This document shows positions 7,671 through 45,184 of a stretch of 64,000 nt of DNA, piece after piece. The stretch is taken from the NCBI GenBank assembly GCA_903856085.1, contig CAIOAT010000012.1, forward strand, positions 39,020 to 103,019, in the 5' to 3' direction. Numbering within the stretch: position 1 is the first letter of the stretch; every line of letters begins with the position of its first letter. The stretch comes from Candidatus Omnitrophota bacterium. GTDB lineage: Bacteria; Omnitrophota; Omnitrophia; Omnitrophales; Aquincolibacteriaceae. Under the pieces are notes generated by a model. That model was not told where the DNA came from, did not search any database, and worked only from the letters and a program-made list of their open reading frames with translations. Made by a program: the position numbers and the translations under genes.

Positions 7671-7832
7671 AGGACTCTCCTGTCGGTGTGGAAATAGCTT
7701 CTTCAAAGCGGCATTATTCTACCCCGCTTTTTTGAGAGCGGGATAGTTTTTTTGTAAGAATACGGTACAATATCCTGTGCGATGCTTCTATCCTTGATTT
7801 TAATTTATTCTGGATAAACGGGAACGGCAGTC

Positions 7833-7884: not shown

Positions 7885-7898
7885 ACAGGGGGTTCAAG

Positions 7899-14276: not shown

Positions 14277-15329
14277 ATGTTGACTCCCACGACGGTATCC
14301 ATCCAAGTAAAACCTTTATGCCCGCTTTTCGGGACCTGCGGAGGATGTCAATACCAGGACCTCCCATACGAAGAAGAGCTTGCCCGGAAAGAGACTATTC
14401 TTAAAGACTTGATCGTGAAAGAATTAAGTCTCCCAGAAGATATTTTTGAGGCGATCACGCCGTCTCCGGAATCCTATTATTATCGCAACCGACTGGATCT
14501 GACGTTGCGTAAAAGGAATAACGGAGAGCGGCAGATGGGTTTTATGCTGCCAGGGACGCAGAGGCTCCAGGAAGTCACAAATTGTTCCATTGCGCGCAAA
14601 GAGATCAATGATTTCCTGGTCGTCCTGAAGGAAGAGGCGGTGCGTAAACTGCCGGAGGATTATAAGGTTGCGAATCTGGTGGTTCGTGTGGGCGACGAGG
14701 GGAAAGTGTTTTGGGGCGGGATCGGCCGCAGATCGCTGAGAATGGAGGAAAAGGATTATTTTTGGACGATCGTGCATGGACGCAAGATCTTTTATGCGCT
14801 CGACACTTTCTTTCAGGCGAATTTGTCGATCCTGGAAAAGATCGTTTCAAGGATCGAAAGTCTTATCCAGTGGGAGAAGGACACTGTTTTTCTTGATCTT
14901 TATTCCGGCGTCGGGCTTTTCGGGATCGCTCTGGCCGATCGCGCCAAGGAAGTCGTGATGATCGAAGAATGCCGCGATTCGGTGACTCTTGCGCAGTTTA
15001 ATGTCAATTATCACCAGCTGGAAAATATCAAAATGCTCGTGGGAAAAGTCGAGACGTATCTCCCGGCGATTTTGAAGGAACTTGATGGCAAACCTTGTGT
15101 GGCCTTGATTGATCCGCCCCGCGGCGGACTTGCAAGTTCTGCCATTGAAACTTTGGGTGCGGCGAAAAGCCTCGAATCTTTATTTTATCTATCCTGTTCG
15201 CCGGAGTCGCTCGCCCGTGATTTGAAGCATTTGGCGAAAGTCGGCTGGAAGGTCCGGAAGATCATGCCGTTCGATTTTTTCCCGCGGACGCGGCATTTGG
15301 AGGTCTTGATATGGCTCGCGCGTTCATAG
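14277..15329 (+). CDS. RlmD/RumA-family 23S rRNA (uracil-C5)-methyltransferase
   Basis: N-terminal Cys cluster CPLFGTCGGCQYQ. SAM-binding motif DLYSGVGLFG. Catalytic motif DPPRGG. Confidence 0.7.
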   Translation: MLTPTTVSIQVKPLCPLFGTCGGCQYQDLPYEEELARKETILKDLIVKELSLPEDIFEAITPSPESYYYRNRLDLTLRKRNNGERQMGFMLPGTQRLQEVTNCSIARKEINDFLVVLKEEAVRKLPEDYKVANLVVRVGDEGKVFWGGIGRRSLRMEEKDYFWTIVHGRKIFYALDTFFQANLSILEKIVSRIESLIQWEKDTVFLDLYSGVGLFGIALADRAKEVVMIEECRDSVTLAQFNVNYHQLENIKMLVGKVETYLPAILKELDGKPCVALIDPPRGGLASSAIETLGAAKSLESLFYLSCSPESLARDLKHLAKVGWKVRKIMPFDFFPRTRHLEVLIWLARS

Positions 15330-17136: not shown

Positions 17137-18911
<1,775 letters not shown>

Positions 18912-18917
18912 GATGTG

Positions 18918-19118
18918 ATGACGAACGATATTTCAAAGGGCAAAAAGGGCAGCATCGTTAACGATGCAATCTTGAAGGAGATTGCGGGGGTGCTTGCCTC
19001 GTTGAAATATGGGGACATTGTTATCAAGGTCCATGATTCCAAGATTATCCAGATCGAAAAGACCGAAAAAGTTAGATACGACGGTTTACACAGTGTGGAA
19101 CAAGGGGGTGGCATTTAA
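18918..19118 (+). CDS. DUF2292/YezD-like small protein
   Basis: GSIVNDAILKEIAGVLASLKYGDIVIKVHDSKIIQIEK is characteristic of the family. The family commonly sits next to sulfur-assimilation genes. Confidence 0.55.
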   Translation: MTNDISKGKKGSIVNDAILKEIAGVLASLKYGDIVIKVHDSKIIQIEKTEKVRYDGLHSVEQGGGI

Positions 19119-19243
19119 AACGGGAATAAAATTTTTAATCTACCGGACGACCGGCTGACTCAAATCAAACAATCACTATTTCGCCTTTCCGACCAGACCA
19201 CTGGATGATGGGGCACAAAAGATCGGACAAGGAGAAAATTAAA

Positions 19244-20137
19244 ATGAAGAAGTTCATTGTGTTGGGGCTTTTAGCCTCTGTCGTCAGCTGGCAATTCACC
19301 GGGGTCTCGTATGCTGGAGTTCCCTTAAACAACCTGGAAGGCGTCGGGGGTATTGCGTTTAATCCGTTGGCGTATCTAGCCAATGCTGGAAGTAAGTGGA
19401 GAAAAGAAGCGCCGGCAACACCCGTGCCTGGAAAAACAGGGACGGAAAAGAAGGCTTTTAACGATTTTGGGTTGCTGGAAAACGTTAGCAAACCCCAAGC
19501 CGGAGCTTGGTATGTGCGGTTGCCCCAGTCGCATGTGGATTGGACCGCGCTTGGAACGGCTTTTTCGCTGTATGACCGTGTGGAAGTTTCGTATGGATGG
19601 GAAGCTGTGGCGCCGCATGGCGGTAAGACGATCTACAAGAACAATATCGGTACAAAGTTCTTGTTGGTTCCGGAGAACGCGGGAGATCACAAGTTCATCC
19701 CGGCAATCTCGATCGGCGGGATTCTAAAGAATACCGACTACGTGCCTGCGAAGACGAACCATGTGGGTTTTGACGCGTATCTGGTCGCGACCAAGCTGAT
19801 CAAAGAAACGCCGCTGCCGGTGCTGTTGTCCGGCGGTTTATTGGCTACGAACAGCCGTACGACCGGTGTTTTTGGTTACGATCCGAATTACCGCTTCACG
19901 TGGTTCGGGAACGCGGATCTGATCGTGCTTAAAAACTTGGCGGTCGGGTATGAGTACAAACAAGGCGCCAAATTCCACGGCTGGCATGATGCGGATTATC
20001 AGGACATCCATGCGGCGTGGTTCATCAATGATAAATGGACCCTTGTGGGTGCTTGGGTCTATGCCGGCGCGGCCAAGAGCACCAAAGAAGTTGGGCTTGG
20101 AGATGGTTTTACGGCTAGCCTGCATTATGCGTTCTAA
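19244..20137 (+). CDS. outer-membrane beta-barrel protein (putative porin)
   Basis: RBS GGAGAA precedes the ATG. Signal peptide ends in SYAG. Alternating amphipathic strands; C-terminus is ...HYAF. Confidence 0.6.
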
Positions 20138-20190
20138 AAGAAAAGAAGTGCTTGCATTTAAGTAGCCGAAAATATAAAAGGGAGGTCCCT

Positions 20191-21123
20191 ATGAACGTTT
20201 ATCAGGATATTACACAGACCGTTGGAAGGACTCCTTTAGTCTGGTTGAACCGGATCGGTAAGGATTCGGGCGCACGCATTGCCGTGAAGCTCGAATCCTC
20301 CAATCCTCTTTCCAGCGTCAAGGACAGGATCGGTGTCGCGATGATCAATGCGGCCGAGCAGGCCGGAAAACTCAAGCCGGGCAGTGTTATTGTGGAGCCC
20401 ACGAGTGGCAACACGGGCATTGCGCTGGCTTTTGTGGCTGCGGCACGCGGTTATCGGTTGATCTTAACCATGCCGGAGACCATGAGCGTAGAGCGCCGGC
20501 AGCTTTTGAAGATCCTGGGCGCGGAATTAGTTCTGACTGAAGGACCCAAAGGTATGCGGGGGGCTGTGGAAAAAGCCGAGGAGATTGCAAAAACCATCCC
20601 CGGAAGTTTTGTCCCGCAGCAATTCAATAACCCGGCAAATGCGGAGATCCACCGGAAGACCACAGCCGAGGAGATCTGGAAAGATACGGACGGGACCGTG
20701 GATATTTTTGTCGCGGGGATCGGGACCGGCGGCACGATCACCGGTGTCGGTGAGGTTTTGAAACAGAGGAAGCCTTCTGCTAGAATCATTGCCGTGGAGC
20801 CGGTTGATTCGCCGGTGCTTTCGGGCGGAAAGCCGGGACCGCACAAGATCCAGGGAATCGGAGCGGGATTTGTTCCCGGGGTCTTGAACACGAAGGTCTA
20901 CGACGAGATCATTCAAGTGCGTCACGAAGATGCGGGGGCGACGGCGCGGCAGTTGGCCCGGCAGGAAGGGATCCTGGGAGGGATCTCGTCGGGCGCGAAT
21001 GTTTGGGCTGCTGCAGAGGTCGCTAAACGGCCGGAATCGAAAGGAAAGACGATCGTGACCGTGATCTGTGATACCGGGGAACGTTATCTTTCCACATGGC
21101 TTTTTCAGGAGTTTGCGGGATGA
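20191..21123 (+). CDS. cysK: cysteine synthase A (O-acetylserine sulfhydrylase)
   Basis: RBS GGGAGG precedes the ATG. Motifs [23 protein letters not shown] and [10 protein letters not shown] present. Confidence 0.9.
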
Positions 21124-22238
21124 CAGCGAAAGAAATCGAAGTGGTTGAAACAAAATATTTTACGTTTGCGGAGGCGGACGGGTTTAAACTGGAATCCGGA
21201 CGCGCGTTCGGGCCCATTACGCTTGCCTATGAAACATACGGCCAGCTGGACGCAGAAAAAAGTAATGCTATCCTCGTGATGCATGCTTTTTCCGGGAACG
21301 CGCATGTCGCGGGCCTCGGGACGGGCGATCAAGATCCGCCGTGGTGGAATTTTATGGTCGGATCGGGCAAAGCCCTTGATACGGACAAATATTTTGTGAT
21401 CTGCATTAACGTGATTGGGGGATGTAAAGGAAGCACCGGTCCTTCTTCCATAAACCCCAAGACGGGGAAACCTTACGGGATCGATTTTCCGCTTATTACG
21501 ATCGGGGACATGGTTCGCACGCAGAAGGTCCTGATCGACCATCTCGGGATCAAGAAGCTCCACGGCGTGATCGGCGGCTCGATGGGAGGCATGCTCGCGC
21601 TCCAGTGGGTTGCGTGTTATCCCGATGCTGTGGAATGTGTCATCCCTATCGCGGCGACCCTGAAGCATTCTCCGCAGCAAATCGCGTTTAACGAGGTCGG
21701 CCGTCAGGCCATCATGGCGGATCCGGCATGGAACCACGGGAATTATTATGGCGGGTCCCTGCCCGAAAAGGGACTTGCGGTTGCGCGCATGGTCGGACAC
21801 ATCACCTATATGAGCAATGATTCTATGGAGAAGAAATTTTCCAGGCGGCTTAAGGATGACAACACCGGTTTCAAGTTCTCGGCAGATTTTGAGGTGGAGG
21901 GCTATCTCCAGTATCGCGGGATGAGTTTTGTGAAGCGCTTTGATGCTAACACGTATCTCTATATTACCAAGGCGATGGATTACTTTGATCTCTCGGATGC
22001 CAAATGGATCCCGAAGGACGGTCTTCCAGGCGTCCGTTTTCTTGTGATCGCATTCAAGTCGGATTGGCTCTATCCGTCCGTTCAATCGCAGGAAATGGTC
22101 AAACAGCTTCAAATGCGGCGCGTGGATGCGACCTACTGTGAAACAGATTCAACCTATGGCCACGATACCTTCCTGATCGAAAGCGAAGCTGAGAAGCAGT
22201 CGCATCTCATCAAGCATTTTCTCGCGAAGAGGAAATAG
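21120..22238 (+). CDS. metX: homoserine O-acetyltransferase
   Basis: ATGA overlap with the cysK stop. Alpha/beta-hydrolase fold with GGSMGGM nucleophile elbow. N-terminus resembles MetX. Confidence 0.9.
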
Positions 22239-22267
22239 CTTCCACCCCGAACATTTGATTGAAGAGC

Positions 22268-22285
22268 CAGGCTTTAAATTTAAAG
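22268..22285. repeat. perfect 18-nt palindrome GGCTTTAAATTTAAAGCC just after metX
   Basis: Self-complementary as read. Shares the TTTAAATTTAAA core with element family 3. Confidence 0.5.
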
Positions 22286-22341
22286 CCGTCCTAGTCGTTC
22301 TTTCTATTTCTTTGAGGTTGACTTGGGCTGTGCTGATTTCC
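22282..22341 (+). promoter_or_regulatory. conserved leader element family 2, copy a (long hairpin with CU-rich loop ... GACTTGGGCTGTGCTGATTTCC)
   Basis: Aligns with 29129..29187 and 55532..55590. Lies between metX and metW. Confidence 0.5.
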
Positions 22342-22433
22342 AATTTTAAATAATGATAATCAGGCGGTTTTGATCAGGGCTTTCCGTTGTTTCTCTTGAA
22401 AAAAAGCCGGTAGAGGAATACTATTTCAATCCT

Positions 22434-23027
22434 ATGGAATCTATCATTAAGCGGTTCGATCATCAGGTGATCTGCGGGATCGTGGAGTCTGGCTCCAAGG
22501 TTCTCGACTTGGGCTGTGGGAACGGGGATCTGCTGCATCTGCTCGCGGAGCAGAGTGGCGTAAAGGCGCAGGGAGTGGAGCTCAATAATGACGCCATTCA
22601 TGCTTGCGTCGAAAAGGGTCTGAGCGTTTTTCATAGTGATATCGACAGCGGACTTCCGTATTATCCTGATCAATCGTTCGATTACGTGATCCTGAACCAG
22701 AGCTTGCAGGAAGCGAAAAAGGTCGAGACCGTGATCTCCGAGGCGCTTCGCGTGGGGAAAAAGGTCATCATTGGCTTTCCCAATTTCGCACATCTTGAGG
22801 CGCGTATTCGGATATTCTTCGGCGGCCGAGCGCCTATCGTTTCATCGCTTCCGTATGAATGGTACAGTACGCCGAATCTTCGTTTTCTTTCCATTAAGGA
22901 CTTCAAGTCCTTTTGCAGGATCAAGGGTTATAAGATTCTGGCCGCGCATTTTCTTGATTCACAAGGCCAGGTCCGTGTGCTTCCCAACCTTTTCGCCCAG
23001 AACGCAATTTTCGTTATCACCCGATAA
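22434..23027 (+). CDS. metW: methionine biosynthesis protein MetW
   Basis: N-terminal motif KVLDLGCGNGDLL present. Typical MetW length, and sits after metX. Confidence 0.85.
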   Translation: MESIIKRFDHQVICGIVESGSKVLDLGCGNGDLLHLLAEQSGVKAQGVELNNDAIHACVEKGLSVFHSDIDSGLPYYPDQSFDYVILNQSLQEAKKVETVISEALRVGKKVIIGFPNFAHLEARIRIFFGGRAPIVSSLPYEWYSTPNLRFLSIKDFKSFCRIKGYKILAAHFLDSQGQVRVLPNLFAQNAIFVITR

Positions 23028-23060
23028 TCATCCATTCCAGTTAAATGTGGCGGGGAATTC

Positions 23061-23831
23061 GTGTCTAATCACAAAGATCTTGAGCACAATAAAAGGATCG
23101 TCGAGCAGTTTTCCAAGCAGGCCATCCCGTTTTCGGAGGTGCCGGGGCACCGGGATTTCATGCAGTTGCTGATCCAGATGTCTGGCGTTAGTTCTTCGGA
23201 TAATGTTCTGGACGTAGCTTGCGGTCCGGGACTGGTCGCTTGTGAATTCTCAAAAGTTGCGGATCATGTGACGGGGATCGATATTACCGCAAAAATGATC
23301 GAACGCGCCAGGTGCCTTCAGGAAGAAAAGCAGCTCACAAATATGGGCTGGTGCGTCCATGATATTTTACCCCTGCCTTATTCCGATAATGATTTTTCAA
23401 TTGTTCTGACCCGGTACAGTTTCCACCACTTCTTGAAGCCTGTGGAGGTGTTGGCGGAAATGATCCGAGTATGTAGGCCCGGGGGCAGGGTTCTGGTTGC
23501 CGATGTGGCATTGCCGTCCGAAAAATCAGCCACCTATGATCGCTTGGAGAAAATTCGCGATCCTTCTCATACGCATGCCCTCACAGTTCCGGAATTTGAG
23601 GCGTTGTTTGCAGCAAGCGGACTGGGGCATATCCAAAGAGGGTCTTATAAAGTCGAGTTGGAACTGGAGCAGCAGCTGAAGGCATCTTTTCCGGATCCCG
23701 GAGATGAAGAAAAGATCCGGGAGATTCTAAGGGCAGATCTTCATGAGGATAAGCTGGGCGTGGGTGTCCATCTCCAAGGGAATGAGATTCATTATTCGGT
23801 TCCGATAGAAGTCTTTGTCGGCCGTAAATAA
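23061..23831 (+). CDS. class I SAM-dependent methyltransferase
   Basis: GTG start. Carries motif I VLDVACGPG and a Methyltransf_11-like core. Confidence 0.75.
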   Translation: MSNHKDLEHNKRIVEQFSKQAIPFSEVPGHRDFMQLLIQMSGVSSSDNVLDVACGPGLVACEFSKVADHVTGIDITAKMIERARCLQEEKQLTNMGWCVHDILPLPYSDNDFSIVLTRYSFHHFLKPVEVLAEMIRVCRPGGRVLVADVALPSEKSATYDRLEKIRDPSHTHALTVPEFEALFAASGLGHIQRGSYKVELELEQQLKASFPDPGDEEKIREILRADLHEDKLGVGVHLQGNEIHYSVPIEVFVGRK

Positions 23832-23877
23832 AAAAAGGCAAGCGGTTTTTAAAAAGCCGCTTGTCCCGTTTATTTTT
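23828..23877. terminator. bidirectional rho-independent terminator between convergent genes
   Basis: An A-run, then stem GCAAGCGG ... CCGCTTGT, then a T-run. Confidence 0.6.
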
Positions 23878-23884
23878 ACTTTGG

Positions 23885-25021
23885 TTATTTCCCTAAGGCT
23901 TTCTTCAGATCCTCAATCAGATCGTCCGCGCTTTCGATGCCGACGGAGATACGGACGGTTTCTTTCGTGATGCCGGAAGCCTTGAGACCTTCGGGTCCCA
24001 TGGAAGCGTGGCTCATGCTCCATGGATGTTCGATCAGGGATTCCACGCCGCCTAATGATTCCGCCAATTGGAAGAGTTTCAGCTTTTTGAAGAATGGTTT
24101 GAGCGGAACTTTTTTTGTGTCCAGTTCGAACGCGAGCATGCCGCCGAAGCCCTTCATCTGTTTCTTGATCAAGCTCTGTTGGGGATGGCTTTCCAGACCC
24201 GTGTAATAGACCTGCTTGACACGGGGATGACCTTCGAGGAACGACGCGATCTTCAGGGCATTCCGTTGATGGGCTTCCATCCGGTAAGGCAGAGTCTTGA
24301 TCCCCCGGAGGACGAGCCAGGCATCAAAAGGGGCTTCGCTTACACCCAAGGCGTTCACGAAATAGCGTATCTTTTCTCCGAGAGCTTTATGGTTATAAAC
24401 AACCGCGCCGCCGACCACGTCGCTATGTCCGTTCAGATATTTTGTGGTGGAATGAATGATGATATCTGCGCCAAATTCAAATGGGCGCTGGAAGTACGGT
24501 GATAGAAAAGTATTATCCACGACGGTCAGGAGTTTTTTCTTTTTGGCCAGACCGATCACGGTCTCGAGATCCACGATGTGGAGCAGGGGATTGGACGGTG
24601 TTTCGATCCAGATCATCCGAGTGCTGGGCCGTATGGCTTTTTTGATGGCTTTCAAGTCCATCATGTTGATGAAAGAGAACGAGATCCCGCGTTTTGAGAA
24701 AATATCTTTGAATAAACGATACGTGCCACCGTAAATATCATTTCCCGTGACGACATGATCTCCCGGCTCCAGGAGGAAGAGAGCCGTCGTGATGGCTGCC
24801 ATGCCGGTTGCCGTGGCAGAGGCTCCCAGTCCGCCTTCGAGCGCCGCGATATTCTCCTCCAGGGCCCCGCGCGTCGGGTTGCCGCTTCGTGAGTAATCAT
24901 AGCCTTTGTGCTTTCCGAGCTCCTCAAAGCGGAAGGTGGAAGTCGGATAGAGCGGCGTGATGACGGAATTATACTGGGTGTCTTTGGCGGTGCCCGTGAG
25001 GACAGCCCTGGTTCGTATGTC
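23885..25021 (-). CDS. cystathionine gamma-synthase/beta-lyase family PLP enzyme (MetB/MetC/MGL-like)
   Basis: Start chosen at MDIRTRAVLTG. Carries YSRSGNPTR and the remaining Cys/Met-metabolism PLP motifs. The longer ORF to 25228 has a non-homologous N-terminal extension. Confidence 0.85.
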   Translation of the reverse strand, partial: DIRTRAVLTGTAKDTQYNSVITPLYPTSTFRFEELGKHKGYDYSRSGNPTRGALEENIAALEGGLGASATATGMAAITTALFLLEPGDHVVTGNDIYGGTYRLFKDIFSKRGISFSFINMMDLKAIKKAIRPSTRMIWIETPSNPLLHIVDLETVIGLAKKKKLLTVVDNTFLSPYFQRPFEFGADIIIHSTTKYLNGHSDVVGGAVVYNHKALGEKIRYFVNALGVSEAPFDAWLVLRGIKTLPYRMEAHQRNALKIASFLEGHPRVKQVYYTGLESHPQQSLIKKQMKGFGGMLAFELDTKKVPLKPFFKKLKLFQLAESLGGVESLIEHPWSMSHASMGPEGLKASGITKETVRISVGIESADDLIEDLKKALGK

Positions 25022-25178
25022 CATGAGTGCTTTTCCTCTCTTGAGTTCAAATCCGTTTATAATGGCGAGTGATAGCGTGTATGGTAAGCGGAAAATAAAA
25101 CAAGGGCAAATGGAAAAAGGTTTTAAATTGACGGCGAAATAAGCGCTTGATACAATTCCTACTAACCTTATAGGGATT

Positions 25179-25580
25179 ATGAAGCTAACCACTCGCAGCG
25201 AATACGTTTTTCTTGCCATCTTGAGCATTGCCCGTTCGAAAGAGAAGGGCTATATCCCGTTGTCTAAAATCGCCAGGGAACAAAAATTACCCATGAAATA
25301 CATGGAACAACTGATGCAAACCCTGTGCAGGTCCGGTTATCTTTCCAGCTCACGCGGCAAGGAGGGCGGGTACCGTTTGGCAAAGCCGGCCCGGAAAATC
25401 ACAATCGCAGAAATCATTCGTTTGTTTGACGGCCCCTTGGCGCCCACGGAATCCGTGAGCACGTATTTTTACAGACTCACGCCGCTTTCGAGAGAAAAAA
25501 AACTGCTCGGAGTGATGCAGGAGATCCGGGATTATGTTTCCAATGCTTTGGAAAAAACGACGATTGCAGATGTGCTGTAA
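25179..25580 (+). CDS. Rrf2-family transcriptional regulator lacking Cys ligands (CymR-like)
   Basis: MKLTTRSEYVFLAIL wHTH N-terminus. No C-terminal cysteine triad. Confidence 0.8.
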   Translation: MKLTTRSEYVFLAILSIARSKEKGYIPLSKIAREQKLPMKYMEQLMQTLCRSGYLSSSRGKEGGYRLAKPARKITIAEIIRLFDGPLAPTESVSTYFYRLTPLSREKKLLGVMQEIRDYVSNALEKTTIADVL

Positions 25581-25627
25581 AAAAAATAAATATTAAAACA
25601 TACCAATCAGATGGGGAAAGAGGGTTT

Positions 25628-26413
25628 ATGATTGAAAGCATTACGATCTTGAGCGGCCATGGGAAAAAAGGTGACAATGAAGCCGTGGAACGGATCGATT
25701 TTAAAATGGGGGATGTGGTCAGCATTGTCGGCCCCACAGGATCCGGTAAAACTACGTTAATTAATGATATCGAATTGTTTGCCGATGGGACCACCCCCAC
25801 AGGGCGGAGCGTATTGATCAACGGTTTGCTGCCGCTACCTGAATATCGCGACAATCCGGCATGCAATCCCATTGCCTTGATCACGCAGCATACGACTTTT
25901 TTGTCCGACTTGCCGGTCGGTGATTTTTTAAGGGCGCATGCGCGTATCCGTTCGAATGTTGCCGTGGATGGCGACAAACTTGTACAGCAGACGCTGGATT
26001 TTGCGAATCAGCTGACCGGAGAGCCGATCATTCCGACGAGTCAGATGACGGAGCTTTCGGGTGGCCAGACGCGGGCGCTTTTGATCGCCGATGCGACGAT
26101 CATTTGCAATACTCCGATCGTGTTGCTTGATGAGGTGGAAAATGCCGGGATCCACAGGACGCGAGCTCTTGAGCTTTTACGCATGCACAAAAAGATTTTT
26201 ATTTTTGTGACGCATGATCCTCGTATCGCGTTACTTTCGGATTACCGGATCATTATGAAACAGGGGTGTATCACCGACGTCTTATACGCGAACGAAGAAG
26301 AGCGCGAGTGTTCGGTGAAAGTCAGGCGGTTGGATGATCTCCTGACGAAGATGCGGGACAAACTGCGGTTCGGGGAGCGATTGACCTCTAAGGAATTGGA
26401 GGGCGTGTTATGA
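25628..26413 (+). CDS. stand-alone ABC-type ATPase (no permease partner)
   Basis: Walker A GPTGSGKTT. Q-loop ITQ. Signature LSGGQ. Walker B VLLDEVE. H-loop VTHD. RBS GAGGG precedes the ATG. Confidence 0.75.
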   Translation: MIESITILSGHGKKGDNEAVERIDFKMGDVVSIVGPTGSGKTTLINDIELFADGTTPTGRSVLINGLLPLPEYRDNPACNPIALITQHTTFLSDLPVGDFLRAHARIRSNVAVDGDKLVQQTLDFANQLTGEPIIPTSQMTELSGGQTRALLIADATIICNTPIVLLDEVENAGIHRTRALELLRMHKKIFIFVTHDPRIALLSDYRIIMKQGCITDVLYANEEERECSVKVRRLDDLLTKMRDKLRFGERLTSKELEGVL

Positions 26414-27111
26414 AGCTTCTGATCTGCGCGGGACCGGCCACGACCGGCAAATCAGCGGTGTTGCGGCACATGATCCGCAAGTTGTTGAGCAAGAATTTGA
26501 AGCCGGCCTTTTTAAAGATCGATGTTCAATATGCGGAGGAAGATGAGATCTTCGCCAAGGAATTCGGTATCCCGACACGCAAGGTCTATTCCGGCGAGCT
26601 TTGTCCTGATCATTGCAACGTGATGGTATTAGGAGATGCGCTGCGTTGGGCCAGTCACGAAGGTTGCCAGGTCCTGATGGTCGAAACGGCGGGCTTGTGT
26701 CTGCGATGTGCGCCTTATGTGGATGGTGGTTTAGGGATGGTTGTTCTGGAAGCGACAAGCGGCATGAATCTGCCTTTGAAAGTGGGGCCTCTGCTATCGC
26801 TGGCCGATATCGCGGTGGTCACCAAGATCGACCGTGTTTCTCAAGCAGAACGCGAGGTTTTCCGTTCACGTATTCAGGATGTGGCGCCGCAAGTACGTAT
26901 CCGCGAGGTCAACGCGCTGTATGGTATCGGGATCGATCCCCTTGTCGCAAGCATTGAGGCCTTTCCGGATGCCGGAGAAAACTTATTGCTCCGGGGCAAT
27001 CCTCCCGTTGGGACTTGTACGATCTGCGTCGGAAAAAAAGAGATAGGTTGGCAGTCTCATTTCGGAGTGGTCCGGGCGCTTGAAAACCAGGTTTTCTATC
27101 GGGGAGAATAA
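26410..27111 (+). CDS. G3E-family P-loop GTPase (UreG/HypB-like metallochaperone)
   Basis: ATGA overlap with the upstream gene. P-loop GPATTGKS. CPDHC motif corresponds to the UreG CPH metal site. ETAGLCLRC corresponds to the HypB ENVGNLVCP region. NKxD-like TKID motif. Confidence 0.7.
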   Translation: MKLLICAGPATTGKSAVLRHMIRKLLSKNLKPAFLKIDVQYAEEDEIFAKEFGIPTRKVYSGELCPDHCNVMVLGDALRWASHEGCQVLMVETAGLCLRCAPYVDGGLGMVVLEATSGMNLPLKVGPLLSLADIAVVTKIDRVSQAEREVFRSRIQDVAPQVRIREVNALYGIGIDPLVASIEAFPDAGENLLLRGNPPVGTCTICVGKKEIGWQSHFGVVRALENQVFYRGE

Positions 27112-27112
27112 T

Positions 27113-28291
27113 ATGCCGGATCGGATCTATTTTGATTATGCCGCGACAACACCGGTGGATCCTCGGGTTGCTGAAAATATGATCCCTTATTTGAAGGATC
27201 AGTTCGGGAATCCATCGAGTCTTCATGAGGTTGGTCGTGAAGCGCGGTTTGTCGTTGAGAAAGCCAGGCAACAAGTAGCGGATCTTTTAGGCGCGTCAAG
27301 CGATGAGATAATCTTTACAAGCAGCGGCACTGAGGCTAATAACATGGCTCTGATTGGTTTTGTGGAGGCCCACGCAGAAGAAGAAATCCATATCGTTACG
27401 AGTGCGATCGAGCATCCATCGATCCTGAAAACATGCCGCTATCTTGAAAAGCGCAAAGTTTCAGTGACCTATCTTTCCGTGACTCCGGACGGGCAAGTAG
27501 AGCCGGATTCACTTCAGGCCGCGATGCGGCCCGAGACGAGGCTTGTTTCGATCATGACCGCGAATAACGTCGCCGGCACAATTCAGCCGATCTGTGAACT
27601 TGTGCGTATAGCCCGTCAGCACGGCGCTCTTTTTCACACAGATGCCGTTCAAGCTTTCGGCAAACTTCCGTTTCATGGTGGACAAGACTCTCCGGATCTC
27701 ATTTCAGTCTCGGCCCATAAACTTTATGGCCCCAAGGGGATTGGTGCTCTTTTTGTGCGCAAAGGAATTCGTTTGAATTCTTTGATCCATGGCGGTGGTC
27801 AAGAACGCGATTTGCGGGCTTCTACGGAAAATGTTCCCGGGATCGTTGGTTTTGGATATGCCGCGGAAATTGCGCGTCAAGGGATGGCTTCGGAAACCGC
27901 ACGGCTTGTAAGTTGGCGTGATGAAATGATAGGACATATTCTAGGTAAAATCCAAGGCTCCTATTTGATAGGACATCCTTATCGGCGTCTTCCGGGGCAT
28001 CTTTGTCTTGGGTTCTCGGGGTTGGAAGGAGACATGATCAAACTTCTAATGCTTCTGGATAAAGCCGGGATTGCTGTTTCCACGGGGAGTGCTTGCAGTT
28101 CCAACCATCCGGGCGAAGCTTCTTATGTGTTGCAGGCCATGGGTTTGGATCCGCTCAAAGCCCGAGGCTCCCTGCGCGTGACCTTGGGGCGGTTTAACAC
28201 TCAGAAAGAAATCGACTGGTTTTTGAAAATTCTTCCAAAAACCCTGGCTGAGCTAAGGCCCATGACAACAGATTCATTTTCTAGTCGCTGA
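27113..28291 (+). CDS. cysteine desulfurase (class I NifS/IscS type)
   Basis: PLP motif HKLYGPKGIGALFVR. Active-site loop GSACSSNHPGEASYVLQAMG. Starts 1 nt after the upstream stop. Confidence 0.9.
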   Translation: MPDRIYFDYAATTPVDPRVAENMIPYLKDQFGNPSSLHEVGREARFVVEKARQQVADLLGASSDEIIFTSSGTEANNMALIGFVEAHAEEEIHIVTSAIEHPSILKTCRYLEKRKVSVTYLSVTPDGQVEPDSLQAAMRPETRLVSIMTANNVAGTIQPICELVRIARQHGALFHTDAVQAFGKLPFHGGQDSPDLISVSAHKLYGPKGIGALFVRKGIRLNSLIHGGGQERDLRASTENVPGIVGFGYAAEIARQGMASETARLVSWRDEMIGHILGKIQGSYLIGHPYRRLPGHLCLGFSGLEGDMIKLLMLLDKAGIAVSTGSACSSNHPGEASYVLQAMGLDPLKARGSLRVTLGRFNTQKEIDWFLKILPKTLAELRPMTTDSFSSR

Positions 28292-28315
28292 GATTAAACA
28301 TAAAAGGAGATTTTT

Positions 28316-29017
28316 ATGTCTATGACCGTTTCAGATCTACCGGGCCTGAATTGTGGGCTTTGTGGTTATCGCACTTGTGCCGAAATGGCCGAGCAACTTC
28401 CGATGAAACCGGAATTGCTCAAACGATGTCTTCCCATGTCCGAGCATCGCGAGCGATCTTTTGAAACAAAGCCTTTCAGCGTTCCCTCGCCTAAAAAAGA
28501 TTGCGGTGCTTGTTCTGTCGCTTGTGCGCCGGAAAAGACGGACGGGGTAAAATGGAAAGATAGTTTGGGACGGGAATTTGATTTTTATCTCGAGCATTTT
28601 CCGGAAGACCCCGGCCCCCGGGAGATCATTATTCCGCATAATCCGATGATCACGCGTGAAATGGAGATCCAACGCGGCGATATCCTGATCGGTCGTCCGC
28701 TTGGTATGTCGTGCGGGTGCCCCATCACGCATTGCGGGGTTGTCATGGAAGTGGACAAGCGTACCGGTGTGATCGTCTGGTGCGTGACTGGGCCTTTGCA
28801 GCCGCGCCAGCATGGATTTAAAGATGTTGGGTATTATATTGCCGAAGGGTACGAAGGTTTGATTAAGCAGACACGTTGTGAGCCCAAGATCGGGATGCGT
28901 TATTACTTTCAGCCGCAGCTATGTATGCTTCAATGGCGCCACAGCGGTCTTGTCAATTATCTGAATCGTCTCAAGGATGGCTACCAAGTCCGTTTGGAAG
29001 GTCTATGGATCGGGTGA
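28316..29017 (+). CDS. Cys-rich Fe-S protein with RnfB-N-terminal-type cluster domain
   Basis: RBS AAGGAGA precedes the ATG. N-terminus LPGLNCGLCGYRTCAEMAE (CX2CX4C, as in the RnfB N-terminal domain). Then CGACSVAC, then CGCPITHCG. Confidence 0.6.
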   Translation: MSMTVSDLPGLNCGLCGYRTCAEMAEQLPMKPELLKRCLPMSEHRERSFETKPFSVPSPKKDCGACSVACAPEKTDGVKWKDSLGREFDFYLEHFPEDPGPREIIIPHNPMITREMEIQRGDILIGRPLGMSCGCPITHCGVVMEVDKRTGVIVWCVTGPLQPRQHGFKDVGYYIAEGYEGLIKQTRCEPKIGMRYYFQPQLCMLQWRHSGLVNYLNRLKDGYQVRLEGLWIG

Positions 29018-29111
29018 AGGGTATTGCCAGATAGCCGGTTCGTTGAAAAAATACGCTGGCAGGCGATGACTCATCAGAAGGGGTTGGATTGTTTTTATCG
29101 GACAAGGCTTG

Positions 29112-29120
29112 TGGTATAAT
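29112..29120 (+). promoter_or_regulatory. extended -10 promoter element TGGTATAAT for the queF unit
   Basis: TGnTATAAT sits about 8 nt before the base of the family 2 hairpin. Confidence 0.4.
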
Positions 29121-29128
29121 TCCCTCCC

Positions 29129-29187
29129 TATGACGGCCAAGTCTTTGTTTTCTCTTTGTGACTGGCGACTTGGACAGTCATGATTAC
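29129..29187 (+). promoter_or_regulatory. conserved leader element family 2, copy b
   Basis: Stem ATGAC-GG-CCAAGTC / GACTTGG-ACA-GTCAT around a 23-nt pyrimidine-rich loop, then GATTAC. 28 nt before the queF ATG. Confidence 0.55.
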
Positions 29188-29214
29188 TGCTTTATTTTTT
29201 AATTAAGGAGAATT

Positions 29215-29583
29215 ATGGCGCAACCTTCGAAGAAACTCGAGATCTTCAGGAATCCGTATCCTCGCCGGGATTATGATATTGAGATGGATTGTCCGGAATT
29301 CACATGCCTTTGCCCCAAGACAGGGCAACCGGATTTTGCGACGATCCGTATTTGTTATGTGCCCGACGAATTCTGCGTGGAACTGAAAAGTCTCAAGCTC
29401 TATCTCTGGAGCTACCGGAATGAAGGTGCGTTCCATGAAGCCGTCACCAACAGTATCCTGGACGATCTGGTCAAAGCGACCAAGCCCCGACACATGTCGG
29501 TCGAGGCGGACTTTTTCGTACGCGGGGGTATCCATACGGTGATCTCCGTTAACTATTCCAAATCCCGCAAGAAAAAATCCTAA
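29215..29583 (+). CDS. queF: NADPH-dependent 7-cyano-7-deazaguanine reductase (unimodular type)
   Basis: Carries the [16 protein letters not shown] motif and E(S/L)K(S/L)(K/Y)(L/Y)(Y/W)-type motif. RBS AAGGAGAA precedes the ATG. Confidence 0.85.
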
Positions 29584-29606
29584 AATCTCTCAAGGAGGAA
29601 AATCCC

Positions 29607-30137
29607 ATGGCGCAAGAGCGAAAGAACGCAGTAACTTTTAAAGGTGGACCGCTGACATTGATCGGTCCCGAAATCAAGGTGGGAGACAAAGCTCCGGATT
29701 TTAAGCTTATCGACACGGGCTTGAAGCCTATCACTTTAGCGGATTCCAAGGGGAAAACCCGTTTGATCAGTGTCGTGCCTTCGATCGATACGCCGGTTTG
29801 TGATCTTCAAACGAAGCGCTTCAATCAGGAAGCCTCGAAGCTCCCGGCGAATGTGGCCGTTATCACGGTCAGTATGGACCTTCCGTTTGCTCAAGGCCGA
29901 TGGTGCGGTCTTGCGGGAGCCGACAAAGTTCAGATGCTTTCTGATTACCAGGACCACGCGTTTGGACAGGCGTATGGAGTGCTTATCAAGGAACTCAAGC
30001 TTCTCTCCCGCGCTGTTTTTGTAATCGGGCCGGATGACAAGGTACAGTATGTCGAATACGTCAAAGAGGTTACCGAGCATCCGGATTACGACAAGGCACT
30101 GCAATCCCTCAAACCGAAGTCCTGCTGCTGTGGGTAA
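29607..30137 (+). CDS. tpx: thiol peroxidase (atypical 2-Cys Tpx) with an unusual C-terminal CCCG tail
   Basis: Tpx N-terminus VTFKGGPLTLIGPEIKVGDKAPDF. Peroxidatic Cys motif PSIDTPVC. Ends in an extra ...SLKPKSCCCG. Confidence 0.85.
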   Translation: MAQERKNAVTFKGGPLTLIGPEIKVGDKAPDFKLIDTGLKPITLADSKGKTRLISVVPSIDTPVCDLQTKRFNQEASKLPANVAVITVSMDLPFAQGRWCGLAGADKVQMLSDYQDHAFGQAYGVLIKELKLLSRAVFVIGPDDKVQYVEYVKEVTEHPDYDKALQSLKPKSCCCG

Positions 30138-36249: not shown

Positions 36250-36402
36250 CGCCGCCGGCTATTTTTTTACAGATTTAACGGTGCAATTTTGATTCCTAAT
36301 CCTTTTAAATCAGTAGGGAATCAGGGGAGTCCTACGAGCCCTAAGAATCCATAGCTGCTTAGCGCGAGTACGTCGTCAGGATTTAAATCAGGTGACACGG
36401 TG

Positions 36403-42784: not shown

Positions 42785-45184
42785 ATGGCTCAACAGCAGG
42801 GAATCCTTCCCAGTTATGTTGATGTTCTTGTCACAAATCTGAAAACCGATGCTTCATGGATCGTCCGAAAATCAGCCGCAACGGCTCTTGGGCAATTAGG
42901 GGATCCTCGTGTTGTGGAGTCTCTGATTGAGGCCATGGGGGATATGGATCAGGCCGTGCAGAATGAGGCGGCCAAAGCCATCGCCAGCATGGAATCTTAT
43001 GCTGCCGGTCCGCTGGTGAATGCGCTTAAGAACAGTAATGAACAGATCCAGCGGAGGGCATCCCGTCTTCTTGCGAACATTAAAAATCTCCCCGTGGAAA
43101 TCCTTGCGCCTATTCTCAATGAAAAGAATAATTTGATCCGTGGGTTGGCCATCGAGCTTTTCGGAATTCGCAGGGAGAAACAAAGCGTTCCGTTGCTTAT
43201 GGATTGCTTGAACGATGTCAATCCGGAGATCCGAAGAAAAGCTATCAAATCGTTGGAAATGATCGGGGATGAAGAGGCCGGACCCGCGATCGAGCGTTTC
43301 ATAAAAGATTCCGAAGAAAGCGTGAGAATGGCGGCGGTCGATCTGGCAGAAAGATTATTGTTGAATGATTCTGCGAATGCGGTTGCGGGTGCAATGAACG
43401 ACAGTAATGCGGGGATCCGCAGAAAAGCGGCCATGATCCTCGGGATTTTAGGGAATCCAGTGGCTCTGGAAGCCCTGATGGGAGCGCTGGGCGATAATGA
43501 CGCGTTGGTCCGGGCTAAGGCAGCCGAGGCCTTGGGGCGGTTGGGGAAAAACGAGGCGTTGAGCGCCTTGACCAAGGCTGCGAATGATCCTGATCTCGAG
43601 ACCCAGAAAAAGGTCACAGAAGCTATTTATATTCTTCAGGCCAACAAGACCAAGCCGGAATTGATGGAGGATCTCGGGAATGCCAATGCGAGCATTCGCC
43701 GCCTGGCGGCAATGAAGTTGAGCCATATGGACGGAACTGAGGAAATCGCCGTCTTGATCAAGGCTCTTCAGGATTCAGACGACTACGTTCGCAATTGCGC
43801 GGTGGATGGGCTCATCAAGCGTGATGCGGAGGAAAGTTACTTAGCGCTTGTCCAGGCTCTTGGGGATATGAATAGTCAGATTCGTATCAAGGTGACTCAG
43901 TATTGTCAAGATCTCGGGAGTAAGGTGGCAGTGTTTTTGCGGGACCTATTGGCTACCGGCAATGCGGAAGCCCGCACCCGAGCTATTTCACTTTTAGGGA
44001 AACTCAAGGATGCCCGAGCCGTTGATGCTTTGATCAAACGGCTTCATGATCCGGATCTTCTTGTTCGTTCAGAAGCCGCTCTGGCCATGGGGAGCATGGG
44101 GAATATTGCGATCGATCCTCTGACGCCTCTTTTGGGGGATTCGAACCCGATGATCCAAATGGTTGTCATTGAGGCCTTCGGAAAGATCGGGAGCAACAAG
44201 ATCGTGCAGCCCATGCTTCAGGCGGTCCAGGGAGGCGGGGAAATGATCCAGGCCAAAGCGATATCCGTCCTCGCGACCATGGGGGATTCGGTGCTGAAGG
44301 CTTTGATCGATAGTTTAAAAGAGCAGAATCCTTCCGCCGTGCGAAAGATGGCCGCGGAAGTTCTTGGCAGGATCGGGGATAAAAAAGCTGTCCCGCCGTT
44401 GCTGGAGGCATTGAGCGATGGCGATACTGAGGTGCGGAAAAAGGTCGTGGAGGCTCTTAACGAGTTCTCGGACCCGCGCATCACGAAAAAAATGATCGAG
44501 CTGATCAAAAATGAAGAACCTTCCATCAAACTTCGAGCGGCCTGGTGCCTGGCTCAGCAGATGGATCCCTTGGCGGTGGATGCGCTCGTGGATCTTTTGA
44601 AAAGTGACAATGTTTCGGTCCGGGAAGAAGCGATGTGGGTGTTGAGTCGTATGCGGGATCTTCCCATTGTCGCGATCCGTAAGTGTGTGAAAGACGCTAA
44701 CCCTCAGGTTCGTGTACTCGCGGTGCGGTTGCTGGGCTTTCTTGGCGGGAGGGCGAGCTCGGATTCGTTGATCGATGCCTTAAAGGATTCCGATGATAAG
44801 GTCCGGGAAATGGCTGTTCGCAGTATCGCTCAAACAGGCGATAAGACGGCGATAGAAACATTGAGTTCGGTCATGAAGGATTCCAATGAAAAGATCCGCG
44901 CATTGGCGTCGGAAGCTCTGGGCGTGGTGGCCAGTAGTGAGGTGGTCGCCCCAGGTCGTAAATGCCCGCGATGCGGCAGGCCCCTTCGGGAAATGAAAAA
45001 ATACAAGGGGGATACGTTCAATCCCGGGCTTTATTGGGGATGTATGATAGGGGGAGTGTTTCTGACCCCGGTTTTTATTGGGGTGTTTCTCATGCTCTAT
45101 GCTTGGAAGATGAGGACGGAGCGCAAGCGCTTTTTGATGTGTGTTTATTGTCAGGAAATGGTTTCTCTGAAGTGGCACGACTAA
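42785..45184 (+). CDS. 799-aa HEAT/PBS-lyase-repeat protein with C-terminal zinc ribbon and TM anchor
   Basis: About 20 repeats of the AxxALGxLGD..AV..L pattern. C-terminus CPRCGRP ... TM helix ... CVYCQ. Confidence 0.8.
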   Translation: MAQQQGILPSYVDVLVTNLKTDASWIVRKSAATALGQLGDPRVVESLIEAMGDMDQAVQNEAAKAIASMESYAAGPLVNALKNSNEQIQRRASRLLANIKNLPVEILAPILNEKNNLIRGLAIELFGIRREKQSVPLLMDCLNDVNPEIRRKAIKSLEMIGDEEAGPAIERFIKDSEESVRMAAVDLAERLLLNDSANAVAGAMNDSNAGIRRKAAMILGILGNPVALEALMGALGDNDALVRAKAAEALGRLGKNEALSALTKAANDPDLETQKKVTEAIYILQANKTKPELMEDLGNANASIRRLAAMKLSHMDGTEEIAVLIKALQDSDDYVRNCAVDGLIKRDAEESYLALVQALGDMNSQIRIKVTQYCQDLGSKVAVFLRDLLATGNAEARTRAISLLGKLKDARAVDALIKRLHDPDLLVRSEAALAMGSMGNIAIDPLTPLLGDSNPMIQMVVIEAFGKIGSNKIVQPMLQAVQGGGEMIQAKAISVLATMGDSVLKALIDSLKEQNPSAVRKMAAEVLGRIGDKKAVPPLLEALSDGDTEVRKKVVEALNEFSDPRITKKMIELIKNEEPSIKLRAAWCLAQQMDPLAVDALVDLLKSDNVSVREEAMWVLSRMRDLPIVAIRKCVKDANPQVRVLAVRLLGFLGGRASSDSLIDALKDSDDKVREMAVRSIAQTGDKTAIETLSSVMKDSNEKIRALASEALGVVASSEVVAPGRKCPRCGRPLREMKKYKGDTFNPGLYWGCMIGGVFLTPVFIGVFLMLYAWKMRTERKRFLMCVYCQEMVSLKWHD

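Follow-up and report, generated by a model that had tools for sequence, protein, structure and literature searches.

A conserved module of an ABC ATPase, a G3E GTPase and a COG2000 iron-sulfur protein in bacteria and methanogens: a candidate component of sulfur supply in anaerobes

What process is served by a compact operon in which the genes for a soluble ABC-type ATPase, a G3E P-loop GTPase, a cysteine desulfurase and a cysteine-rich iron-sulfur (Fe-S) protein follow behind that of an Rrf2-family regulator? The question is raised by positions 25179-29017 of a 64,000-nucleotide stretch of contig CAIOAT010000012.1 from a Candidatus Omnitrophota bacterium (the whole stretch is called the window in the following). 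An initial reading of the letters alone (the sequence-only reading) had proposed that the four genes form a dedicated machinery that builds or inserts a sulfur-containing metal centre, with the Fe-S protein as its scaffold, carrier or first client. We found that the cassette is real, widely conserved and outside the known pathways, and that its core consists of three genes and not four: those encoding the ATPase, the GTPase and the Fe-S protein, which belongs to COG2000. In bacteria as well as in methanogens this module is consistently embedded among genes for sulfur assimilation and for thiol or sulfonate biosynthesis, and it is a strong candidate for a missing step in the sulfur supply for biosynthesis in anaerobes. 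The genes of the operon are the following.

25179..25580, + strand: Rrf2-family regulator (PF02082 103.2 bits, threshold 30; TIGR00738 108.1 bits, cutoff 73.3)
25628..26413, + strand: soluble ABC-type ATPase, 261 aa, core component 1 (PF00005 49.8 bits, threshold 25)
26410..27111, + strand: G3E P-loop GTPase, 233 aa, core component 2 (PF02492 36.1 bits, threshold 20.7)
27113..28291, + strand: NifS/IscS-type cysteine desulfurase, optional (PF00266 258 bits; best NCBIfam match NifS TIGR03402, 463 bits)
28316..29017, + strand: COG2000 Fe-S protein, 233 aa, core component 3, probable effector (PF04060 35.7 bits, threshold 23)

Open reading frame (ORF) calling returned these five same-strand ORFs, all on the + strand between 25179 and 29017, and the operon is genuine. 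Its tight packing was read directly from the sequence: the ATPase and GTPase genes share an ATGA overlap at 26410-26413, the TAA stop of the GTPase gene is separated by the single base 27112 from the ATG of the desulfurase gene (an alternative TTG start at 27080 is less likely than the ATG at 27113), and the ribosome-binding site AAGGAG lies 7 nt before the ATG of the Fe-S gene at 28316. The motifs that had been listed for the three core proteins were likewise present in the translations, namely the complete ABC set in the ATPase (GPTGSGKTT, ITQH, LSGGQ, VLLDE, VTHD), GPATTGKS, CPDHC, VETAG (the ExxG hallmark), CLRC and TKID in the GTPase, and LPGLNCGLCGYRTC, CGACSVAC and CGCPITHCG in the Fe-S protein.

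The conservation of the cassette was then assessed from the Fe-S protein outwards. A search with the window protein gave 2,189 matches at E<=1e-3, 57-70% identical across phyla, and a profile of divergent COG2000 members retrieved 1,325 proteins; taken together, these two partly overlapping searches put the size of the family at more than 3,000 protein clusters at 90% identity. Two clades were distinguished, with clade 2 (methanogens, Clostridia) about 30% identical to clade 1, to which the window belongs. For clade 1, 82 distinct loci were collected (80 from a scan of one genome per species and 2 from earlier look-ups; individual loci carry L numbers), on which the window proteins were used as phmmer queries. 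The closest of these loci are from Omnitrophota (Fe-S protein 78-90% identity). Other hosts are Chloroflexota, Planctomycetota, Verrucomicrobiota, Acidobacteriota, Bdellovibrionota, Alphaproteobacteria (including the cultured Rhodoblastus sphagnicola), Thiobacillaceae, Nitrospirales, Hydrogenedentota, Myxococcales, Geobacteraceae, Desulfuromonadaceae and Eubacteriales. The hosts of clade 2 comprise Methanomicrobiales (Methanogenium, Methanoculleus, Methanospirillum, Methanoplanus, Methanofollis), Clostridia, Desulfotomaculaceae, Phosphitispora and others.

The genes for the ATPase and the GTPase were located directly upstream of the Fe-S gene, on the same strand, in 72/72 clade-1 loci with enough upstream sequence, and upstream of it in 56/56 clade-2 loci with room for them, where the two proteins are homologous to those of the window; in one uncultured organism (L085) the trio occurs in rearranged order. 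Linkage of this kind in two clades is not chance adjacency. The three-protein module, present in at least ten bacterial phyla and several methanogen genera, is under strong purifying selection and always co-encoded. The median identity to the window protein in the loci from outside the Omnitrophota is 80% for the GTPase, 70% for the ATPase, 66% for CysK, 65% for the Fe-S protein, 59% for NifS and 55% for Rrf2. Clustering of all flanking ORFs yielded no other universally linked gene, so that the COG2000 protein is the only candidate for a client or effector.

The desulfurase did not retain its place in the core. Of the 82 clade-1 loci, 55 have its gene next to the trio, and of the 80 clade-2 loci none has; an Rrf2 gene was found upstream of the cassette in 34/67 clade-1 loci. 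Both genes are optional bacterial add-ons. NifS is clearly dispensable, because it is absent from a close, long Omnitrophota relative (L006, 7216-8702), where only an 84-bp gap separates the GTPase and Fe-S genes, and because only remnants are left in L004 (77 aa, 7766-7999) and L046 (two fragments, 7296-7918). The gene has thus been lost repeatedly from the cassette.

Do the separate components belong to a described maturation pathway? None of the three core proteins is matched above cutoff by a curated NCBIfam model, and the HMM/NCBIfam and PDB searches led to no characterised pathway, in agreement with the placement of the system outside ISC, SUF, NIF, Hyp, Ure and Coo. The predicted lack of client and scaffold genes was also borne out: no urease, hydrogenase, carbon monoxide dehydrogenase, nitrogenase or IscU/SufBCD gene is present among 28 scanned ORFs of the window, the remaining ORFs having been read by eye. 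Pfam scans of 20 further large ORFs of the window gave electron-transfer flavoprotein (ETF) and ETF-ubiquinone oxidoreductase (ETF-QO) proteins, a histidine kinase, LptF/G, DsbD, HAD hydrolases and a HEAT-repeat protein, among others.

The GTPase has the Walker A, ExxG and TKID motifs of the G3E superfamily and scores above the Pfam gathering threshold. HypB and UreG are its best named matches, and yet it scores 42.8 bits against a cutoff of 121.2 for HypB (TIGR00073) and 20.7 bits against 204.2 for UreG (TIGR00101). It shares with them the G3E signature and a Cys-Pro-x-His between G1 and G3, which aligns to the CPH motif of UreG (structure 4hi0, E=1e-4, the CP of the query standing on the CP(H) of UreG). 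It differs from them in its extra CxxC pairs, in a C-terminal extension with CTIC and in its partners, the ABC ATPase and the COG2000 protein, and the GTPase of the trio never adjoins a hydrogenase or urease: no urease genes were found, and a hydrogenase is missing from the 28 scanned ORFs and does not recur near 160 related loci. The CxCC of the COG0523/CobW type is not present either (CPDHC, CLRC and CTIC are found instead), nor is there a CobW_C match. Conserved in both clades are C65-P-D-H68, a C97xxC100 just after switch II, and a C203xxC206 in the C-terminal extension, which is itself conserved. HypB also has Cys residues after switch II. By its sequence, the protein belongs to a new subfamily of the G3E GTPases.

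The ATPase belongs to the ABC superfamily and its motifs are invariant across 52 sequences. Its closest solved relatives are ordinary transporter nucleotide-binding domains (NBDs; about 1e-10), as are its top NCBIfam matches, and no SufC chain was recovered at E<=1e-8. Like SufC, it is transporter-independent and encoded beside a cysteine desulfurase and a Cys-rich partner; unlike SufC, it has a G3E GTPase as its constant partner, is at least as close to transporter NBDs as to SufC, and lacks SufB, SufD and SufE in the window (neither SufB nor SufD was seen among the neighbours or the scanned window ORFs). The desulfurase had been called a class I NifS/IscS enzyme. PF00266 and a SACSS active-site loop place it in class I, but it falls below both equivalog cutoffs, with 463 bits against a cutoff of 531 for NifS (TIGR03402) and 382 against 643 for IscS. 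An IscU/NifU scaffold does not recur in the cassette in the 82 loci and is not found among the scanned window ORFs.

Two explanations in terms of known machinery can be weighed on this evidence. The cassette could be a minimal system for general Fe-S biogenesis, in which a SufC-like ATPase, an Nbp35/ApbC-like carrier, NifS and a scaffold serve the whole cell, and a NifS, a soluble ABC ATPase, a Cys-rich nucleoside triphosphatase (NTPase) and an Rrf2 protein do resemble the parts list of SUF and ISC. Such a service is very improbable, since NifS is missing from a third of the clade-1 loci and adjacent in no clade-2 locus, no U-type, A-type or SufB/D scaffold is linked, the ATPase matches transporter NBDs best, the Rrf2 protein has no cluster ligands (see below), and the contexts are cysteine and coenzyme M genes instead of Fe-S genes; moreover, the host phyla generally have SUF or ISC. 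More improbable still, to the point of being scarcely credible, is a trivial adjacency of a HypB/UreG paralogue that serves a distant nickel enzyme and an orphan transporter NBD, for instance of a sulfate importer. The best named matches of the two proteins would suit it, but it conflicts with the invariable linkage in bacteria and archaea, with the wide margin by which the HypB and UreG cutoffs are missed, and with the lack of any permease or nickel enzyme that recurs nearby. The assignment of the ATPase as an orphan transporter NBD was rejected on a Planctomycete operon, which has its own CysA besides the cassette ATPase.

The Fe-S protein was examined by structure prediction and by an alignment of 84 sequences from both clades. 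AlphaFold gave an overall predicted local distance difference test (pLDDT) score of 80, and more than 90 in the C-terminal domain, when run on this two-clade alignment, which replaced an unusable model (pLDDT 52) from 44 near-identical clade-1 sequences. The protein is divided as follows.

about 28337-28435, + strand: PF04060 [4Fe-4S] domain, residues 8-40 (above the Pfam cutoff)
between the PF04060 and C-terminal domains, + strand: linker with a CxxC (low-confidence model)
about 28553-29014, + strand: C-terminal all-beta domain (structure prediction)

Invariant in the 84 sequences are the PF04060 cysteines C13, C16, C21 and C38, the pairs C135-x3-H139 and C203-x5-H209, and the arginines R102, R127, R164, R195 and R226, while C63, C66, C133, C140 and C156 are limited to clade 1. 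The presence of NifS tracks these five extra cysteines of clade 1 (adjacent in 55/82 versus 0/80 loci). The confidently modelled C-terminal domain has no relative among solved structures, and an exhaustive HMMER search with this domain alone against 1.84 billion representatives gave only 148 matches; those inspected were without exception members of the COG2000 family, some of them full-length and 28-54% identical. The PF04060 domain, with its CX2CX4C...C pattern, is shared with RnfB and with the corrinoid protein of CODH/ACS (CdhE), but the rest of the window protein is unrelated to these and their models give 17-18 bits against cutoffs of 69-445; for RnfB this amounts to 17.5 bits against a TIGR01944 cutoff of 68.7, with no Fer4 domains in the protein and no rnf genes.

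In clade 2, the trio adjoins genes for the biosynthesis of coenzyme M (CoM). The arrangements include the following.

L089, Methanogenium: ABC-G3E-FeS-cysteate synthase (TIGR03844, 656 bits)-ComDE
L092, Methanoplanus: ABC-G3E-FeS-MMP16/ComF (TIGR03287, 526 bits)-cysteate synthase-ComDE
L093, contig of a metagenome-assembled genome: order as in L092 (ComF by Pfam PF01837), with an extra 100-aa ORF after ComF
L091, Clostridia: ComA (337 bits, cutoff 280)-ComB-like-ABC-G3E-FeS
L085, uncultured: YeiH-like membrane protein-FeS-epimerase-ABC-G3E

In L092 the Fe-S gene and ComF, ComF and cysteate synthase, and cysteate synthase and ComDE all overlap by a few bases, and many loci have a 4-nt overlap between the COG2000 gene and the start of MMP16/ComF. 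A metagenome scan added 80 clade-2 loci, with ComF directly downstream in 54, cysteate synthase in 48 and ComDE in 46. ComA lies upstream in 6 clade-2 loci, all of them without ComF, and the ComA(-ComB)-trio loci contain no thiol-forming enzyme. Nearly all CoM-linked loci of clade 2 carry a consumer of sulfite (cysteate synthase in 48, ComA in 6). This pattern, with the absence of a thiol-forming enzyme from the ComA-ComB loci, favours a role in sulfite provision, whereas the 4-nt overlap with ComF favours that of a sulfur or electron donor for thiolation. We know of no established source of the sulfite for the sulfonate group in sulfide-grown methanogens, and a literature search on this point found nothing.

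The trio itself has been noticed once before: the legend to Fig 2 of Chadwick et al. (2025, PLoS Genet; PMC12068725) mentions an ATPase, a Ni2+-binding GTPase and a COG2000 protein beside the CoM genes, with role unknown. The supplementary tables of that paper contain no identifiable trio genes, and in the literature searched there is no description of the trio beyond this remark and none of the NifS/Rrf2-linked bacterial version. The module was thus noticed in methanogens and not studied, and this literature yielded no account of the clade-1 loci in bacteria, of the NifS and Rrf2 genes added there, of the operator, of the residue anatomy or of the lack of structural relatives. The methanogen trio consists of the same three families in the same order, its Fe-S protein being about 30-35% identical to that of the window and having the PF04060 cysteines, the 2Cys/2His set and the five arginines in common with it; the window differs in its five extra cysteines, its embedded NifS, its Rrf2 gene and its neighbours, which concern cysteine and methionine and not CoM. 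According to the same paper, the sulfur species and the electron count of the ComF reaction are unclear and a backup route exists, and the sulfur species, donors and trafficking for the COG1900 enzymes at large are unresolved, with a trafficking protein, MA1715, known for L-ASST (PMC12068725). The COG1900 enzymes (L-ASST MA1821/MA1822; MMP16/ComF) resemble our system in that they accomplish Fe-S-dependent sulfur incorporation, into homocysteine or CoM, and adjoin the trio in methanogens, but the COG2000 protein has no sequence or fold relationship with them, and a six-frame search of the window and of 80 clade-1 loci detected no COG1900/MMP16.

These data bear on the possibility that the COG2000 protein is a sulfur relay or carrier, which would take sulfur from NifS (bacteria) or sulfide (methanogens) and hand it over, as protein-bound persulfide or cluster sulfide and together with electrons of the PF04060 domain, to thiol-forming enzymes, that is to MMP16/ComF or, in bacteria, to sulfhydrylases or another acceptor. 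The overlap with ComF and its position downstream in 54/80 loci, the embedding of NifS in the bacterial cassette, and the trafficking protein MA1715 that serves L-ASST, the sulfur donors of the COG1900 enzymes being unresolved (PMC12068725), are in its favour. It nevertheless seems unlikely to us: COG1900 genes are lacking from the window and the 80 bacterial loci, the ComA-ComB-trio loci offer no thiolation enzyme as a recipient, the need of a relay for two NTPases is not apparent, and to spend cysteine sulfur on the making of cysteine or homocysteine would be partly futile.

Some further observations were made in clade 2. The 510-aa membrane protein that precedes the Fe-S gene in L085 (2477-4009) weakly matches the YeiH family ('putative sulfate export transporter'; 82 bits versus a cutoff of 233), which is a hint at a link with sulfur oxyanions. 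The epimerase beside the Fe-S gene in L085 and L094 was considered as a UDP-sulfoquinovose synthase (SqdB), which would have added a third consumer of sulfite, and rejected (36 bits against a cutoff of 575). Near the trio of Phosphitispora fastidiosa (L090, 12228-15455), five tandem ORFs of 31-33 aa are found with a B12-binding radical SAM enzyme and a methyltransferase, in an arrangement that looks like a biosynthetic cluster for ribosomally synthesised and post-translationally modified peptides.

The bacterial loci of clade 1 place the module in sulfur assimilation. Recurrent neighbours are CysK (17-19 loci, in two counts), CysE (8), a sigma-54 activator (8), the sulfate/thiosulfate transporter Sbp-CysT-CysW-CysA (7), MetB/C (6) and an MBL-rhodanese (6). 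In a member of the Thermoguttaceae (L068) the cassette is inserted in the importer operon itself, in the order Sbp-[ABC-G3E-NifS-FeS]-CysT-CysW-CysA, with all four transporter proteins above their NCBIfam cutoffs. No CoM genes (ComA/B, cysteate synthase, ComDE) were found among the scanned window ORFs, and none recur near the clade-1 cassettes. The combination of importer, CysK/CysE and rhodanese would fit a step at the level of sulfite, thiosulfate or persulfide. In the window, the sequence-only reading had noted a divergent metB/C-like gene beside the operon; it is there and divergent, but the relation goes beyond that of a mere neighbour, the module being consistently embedded in sulfur assimilation and thiol/sulfonate biosynthesis. 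Directly upstream of the cassette lies a block for sulfur amino acids (17445-25024), the last member of which is the divergent metB/C-like gene given with the regulatory elements below.

17445-18911: metY-like Cys/Met enzyme dependent on pyridoxal phosphate (PLP)
19205-20137: DUF3034 protein
about 20191-21123: cysK, overlaps metX
21096-22238: metX
22434-23027: metW
23061-23831: SAM methyltransferase

The regulatory elements between this block and the operon, together with the divergent gene, are as follows.

25128..25156, + strand: sigma-70-like promoter of the operon (TTGACG, 17-nt spacer, TACAAT, extended TG; 10/12 matches)
25156..25176, strand not assigned: predicted palindromic Rrf2 operator TTCCTACTAACCTTATAGGGA (weight-matrix score 20.3/16.9 on the two strands)
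23885..25024, - strand: metB/C-like Cys/Met PLP enzyme, divergent, sharing the operator-containing intergenic region (PF01053 497 bits; its start is most likely near 25024, not at 25228)

The promoter is the best sigma-70-like site in 24900-29700, and equivalent promoters of the form CTTGACA...TATACT precede rrf2 in other phyla. After the promoter a 21-bp palindrome, TTCCYAT-N4-TTAGTCATAT, is conserved upstream of rrf2 in many phyla; in the window its first base is also the last one of the -10 box, and 2 nt separate its end from the rrf2 ATG. Its weight-matrix score of 20.3 exceeds the shuffle maximum of 18.4, and no other site in the 64 kb reaches significance. Among the loci, the box precedes rrf2 in 21; it occurs a second time, 30-70 bp ahead of the ABC gene, in 29, and at cysK in 4, one of which is the Omnitrophota relative L006. 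Control by Rrf2, as had been proposed, is supported by this predicted operator, which overlaps the promoter and is conserved across phyla, and such an arrangement is what one expects if a repressor regulates its own gene along with the cassette and, in some genomes, cysK. Co-regulation of the metB/C-like gene through the shared intergenic region is possible. No further significant box was found at cysK or the metY-like gene of the window. The other candidates (36299-36319, 55587-55607 and 14394-14421) were discarded, as they score at or below shuffle levels or lie inside genes; the palindrome at 36299-36319, TCCCTACTGATTTAAAAGGAT, stands between two convergent genes, its score of 15.4 is below the 95th percentile of the shuffles (17.5), and it is probably due to chance.

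The regulator had been described as a Cys-less, CymR-like Rrf2 protein. It has no IscR-type cluster ligands, the ligand region FDGPLAPTESVSTYFY being without Cys and the score 73 bits against an IscR (TIGR02010) cutoff of 208, but one non-conserved cysteine, C50, is present. Its homologues have a conserved LFDGxLAPTESVS segment at the place of the IscR ligands. The resemblance to CymR of Bacillus/Staphylococcus consists in the lack of cluster ligands and in the position upstream of a NifS-type gene among cysteine genes, while the protein scores 86.7 bits against a cutoff of 195 for NF047409. CymR is an Rrf2-type master regulator of cysteine metabolism that binds operators of cysteine genes and depends on CysK and O-acetylserine for its activity, and its gene occurs in the order cymR-nifS(yrvO)-mnmA. 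The AATTCC...GGAATT-like palindrome of the operator presumably resembles the CymR box.

Other modes of regulation were seen in part of the loci. Chloroflexota loci have two tandem Rrf2 genes upstream of the ABC ATPase gene (e.g. L015, 4214-4618 and 4675-5154; also L016, L017, L019, L023, L025, L030, L032, L036, L040 and L050); one protein of each pair is near the window Rrf2 (about 150 bits), the other is divergent (55-97 bits), and a box precedes each transcription unit. In 8 loci without an adjacent Rrf2 gene (Planctomycete loci and Rhodoblastus sphagnicola), a divergent gene for a sigma-54 enhancer-binding protein lies upstream of the cassette (e.g. L066 4370-5986, - strand; L080 3228-4871, - strand; L083), with a GAF sensor domain read by eye, which suggests a different mode of regulation.

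How might these parts work together? All components belong to known superfamilies, and the most economical reading is a nucleotide-dependent assembly system for a metallocentre together with its client. Tentatively, and as the reading we prefer, we propose a function of the COG2000 protein in sulfur supply, as a small redox metalloprotein whose metal-sulfur centre would be built or recharged by the two NTPases, helped by NifS in bacteria. In essence this is the idea of the sequence-only reading, with a physiological context added to it; the mechanism envisaged there, with NTPases that would build the sulfur-containing centre on the Fe-S protein, is consistent with the data. The COG2000 protein would be the effector. 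Its PF04060 domain probably binds a [4Fe-4S] cluster for electron transfer, C135, H139, C203 and H209 of the beta domain may hold a metal or metal-sulfur centre, and the five invariant arginines, placed presumably around this 2Cys/2His site, could form an anion-binding pocket for sulfite, thiosulfate or a sulfonate. The GTPase, which has Cys/His motifs where HypB and UreG bind their metal, would load, assemble or recharge the centre together with the ATPase. Because the presence of NifS tracks the five extra cysteines of clade 1, the bacterial enzyme may deliver cysteine-derived sulfur for one or more additional clusters on these residues, in place of which methanogens and Clostridia would use free sulfide. 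The CymR-type Rrf2 repressor would bind the palindrome abutting the -10 box and tie expression to the cysteine or sulfur status. Once loaded, the COG2000 protein would deliver or convert inorganic sulfur at the sulfite, sulfide or persulfide level, with cysteine and methionine as the output in bacteria and CoM in methanogens, via thiol and sulfonate biosynthesis. In this scheme the binding of metal, the division of labour between the NTPases, NifS as the donor, repression by Rrf2 and the physiological reaction are all extrapolated from sequence and gene context.

Several points weigh against this proposal. The NTPases are more conserved than their presumed client (G3E 80% and ABC 70% versus 65% for the Fe-S protein and 66% for CysK), which is atypical of maturation factors and fits obligatory catalytic subunits better, so that the two proteins may be more than maturases. 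No transporter of nickel, cobalt or zinc is linked to the module, and a cysteine-consuming NifS is odd in a regulon that otherwise makes cysteine. The reaction is not pinned down by the contexts, because COG1900 is absent near the bacterial cassettes and no gene of the CysH/CysI/Sat type recurs among the clade-1 neighbours. Finally, the proportions in the 80 metagenomic clade-2 loci are biased towards methanogens, since the seeding patterns came from a methanogen-rich alignment.

The first of these points leads to the more radical idea, doubtful yet possible in our view, that the trio constitutes a nucleotide-driven metalloenzyme of a type not recognised before, which would activate inorganic sulfur or convert it from one form into another. 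In its specific form, which we consider somewhat unlikely, the three proteins would make up a single enzyme, in which a dimer of the G3E protein holds a bridging cluster or metal on its Cys pairs and GTP/ATP hydrolysis, with the ABC ATPase, drives a redox or sulfur-transfer step on the COG2000 subunit. Candidate reactions would be the formation of sulfite from sulfide or persulfide for ComA or cysteate synthase, the splitting of thiosulfate into sulfite and sulfide, and the generation of an activated sulfur species for ComF, CysK or MetY. The high conservation of the NTPases is matched by their strictly one-to-one co-occurrence with the Fe-S protein in both clades, and conserved cysteines of the GTPase lie just after switch II and in the C-terminal CxxC; their positions recall, by analogy only, those of cluster-bridging NTPases (NifH, Nbp35, ApbC-type). 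The five invariant arginines suggest an oxyanion substrate. Also in favour of the idea are the sulfite-consuming enzyme in nearly all CoM-linked clade-2 loci, the ComA(-ComB) loci without a thiol-forming enzyme, the Planctomycete cassette inside a sulfate/thiosulfate importer operon and the MBL-rhodanese of 6 loci. Yet neither a G3E GTPase nor a soluble ABC ATPase is known to act as a redox-coupling subunit, the reaction itself is conjectural throughout, NifS is left without a clear role beyond cluster assembly, and the reaction would have to run in one direction in bacteria, where sulfide is required, and in another in methanogens, where sulfite is, unless the two share thiosulfate or persulfide as substrate. 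That the cleavage of thiosulfate, giving one sulfite and one sulfide, should furnish the two sulfurs of CoM is pure conjecture.

Under either proposal the module differs from every described example in a client domain that has no relatives, in the combination of a G3E GTPase and a soluble ABC ATPase, in an optional NifS embedded in it and in its sulfur-assimilation and CoM context. It is compact (three or four small genes), widespread and highly conserved, and still no member of COG2000 has a known function. The gaps on which it touches are the sulfur species and electrons for the last step of CoM synthesis, the source of sulfite, and sulfur trafficking in anaerobes that are not dependent on free cysteine. 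For research on metallochaperones, either a G3E-dependent metallocentre of a new kind or an unfamiliar use of G3E and ABC NTPases would be of interest. Should the NTPases prove catalytic, the module would be categorically new: a nucleotide-driven metalloenzyme would fill a missing step of CoM biosynthesis in methanogens and of sulfur assimilation in many uncultured anaerobic bacteria, and in it a G3E GTPase and an ABC ATPase would, without precedent, take part in catalysis. Cultured carriers include Methanogenium, Methanoculleus, Methanoplanus, Phosphitispora fastidiosa and Rhodoblastus sphagnicola.

A few observations in the window concern genes other than those of the module. The cassette is followed at 29215-30137 by queF (preQ1 synthase, TIGR03139 179 bits) and tpx (thiol peroxidase), a synteny kept in Omnitrophota relatives (L005 1928-2934, L006 8801-9724) and not in other phyla, because of which the two genes probably lie outside the module. 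At the edge of the window (3-3074), a truncated ETF-QO gene is followed by one for a 655-aa protein, a fusion of ETF beta-like and alpha domains. Positions 42785-45184 encode a 799-aa protein that consists wholly of HEAT/PBS-lyase-type repeats (PF13646, 375 bits, 10 stretches), which is unusual for a bacterium with a small genome.

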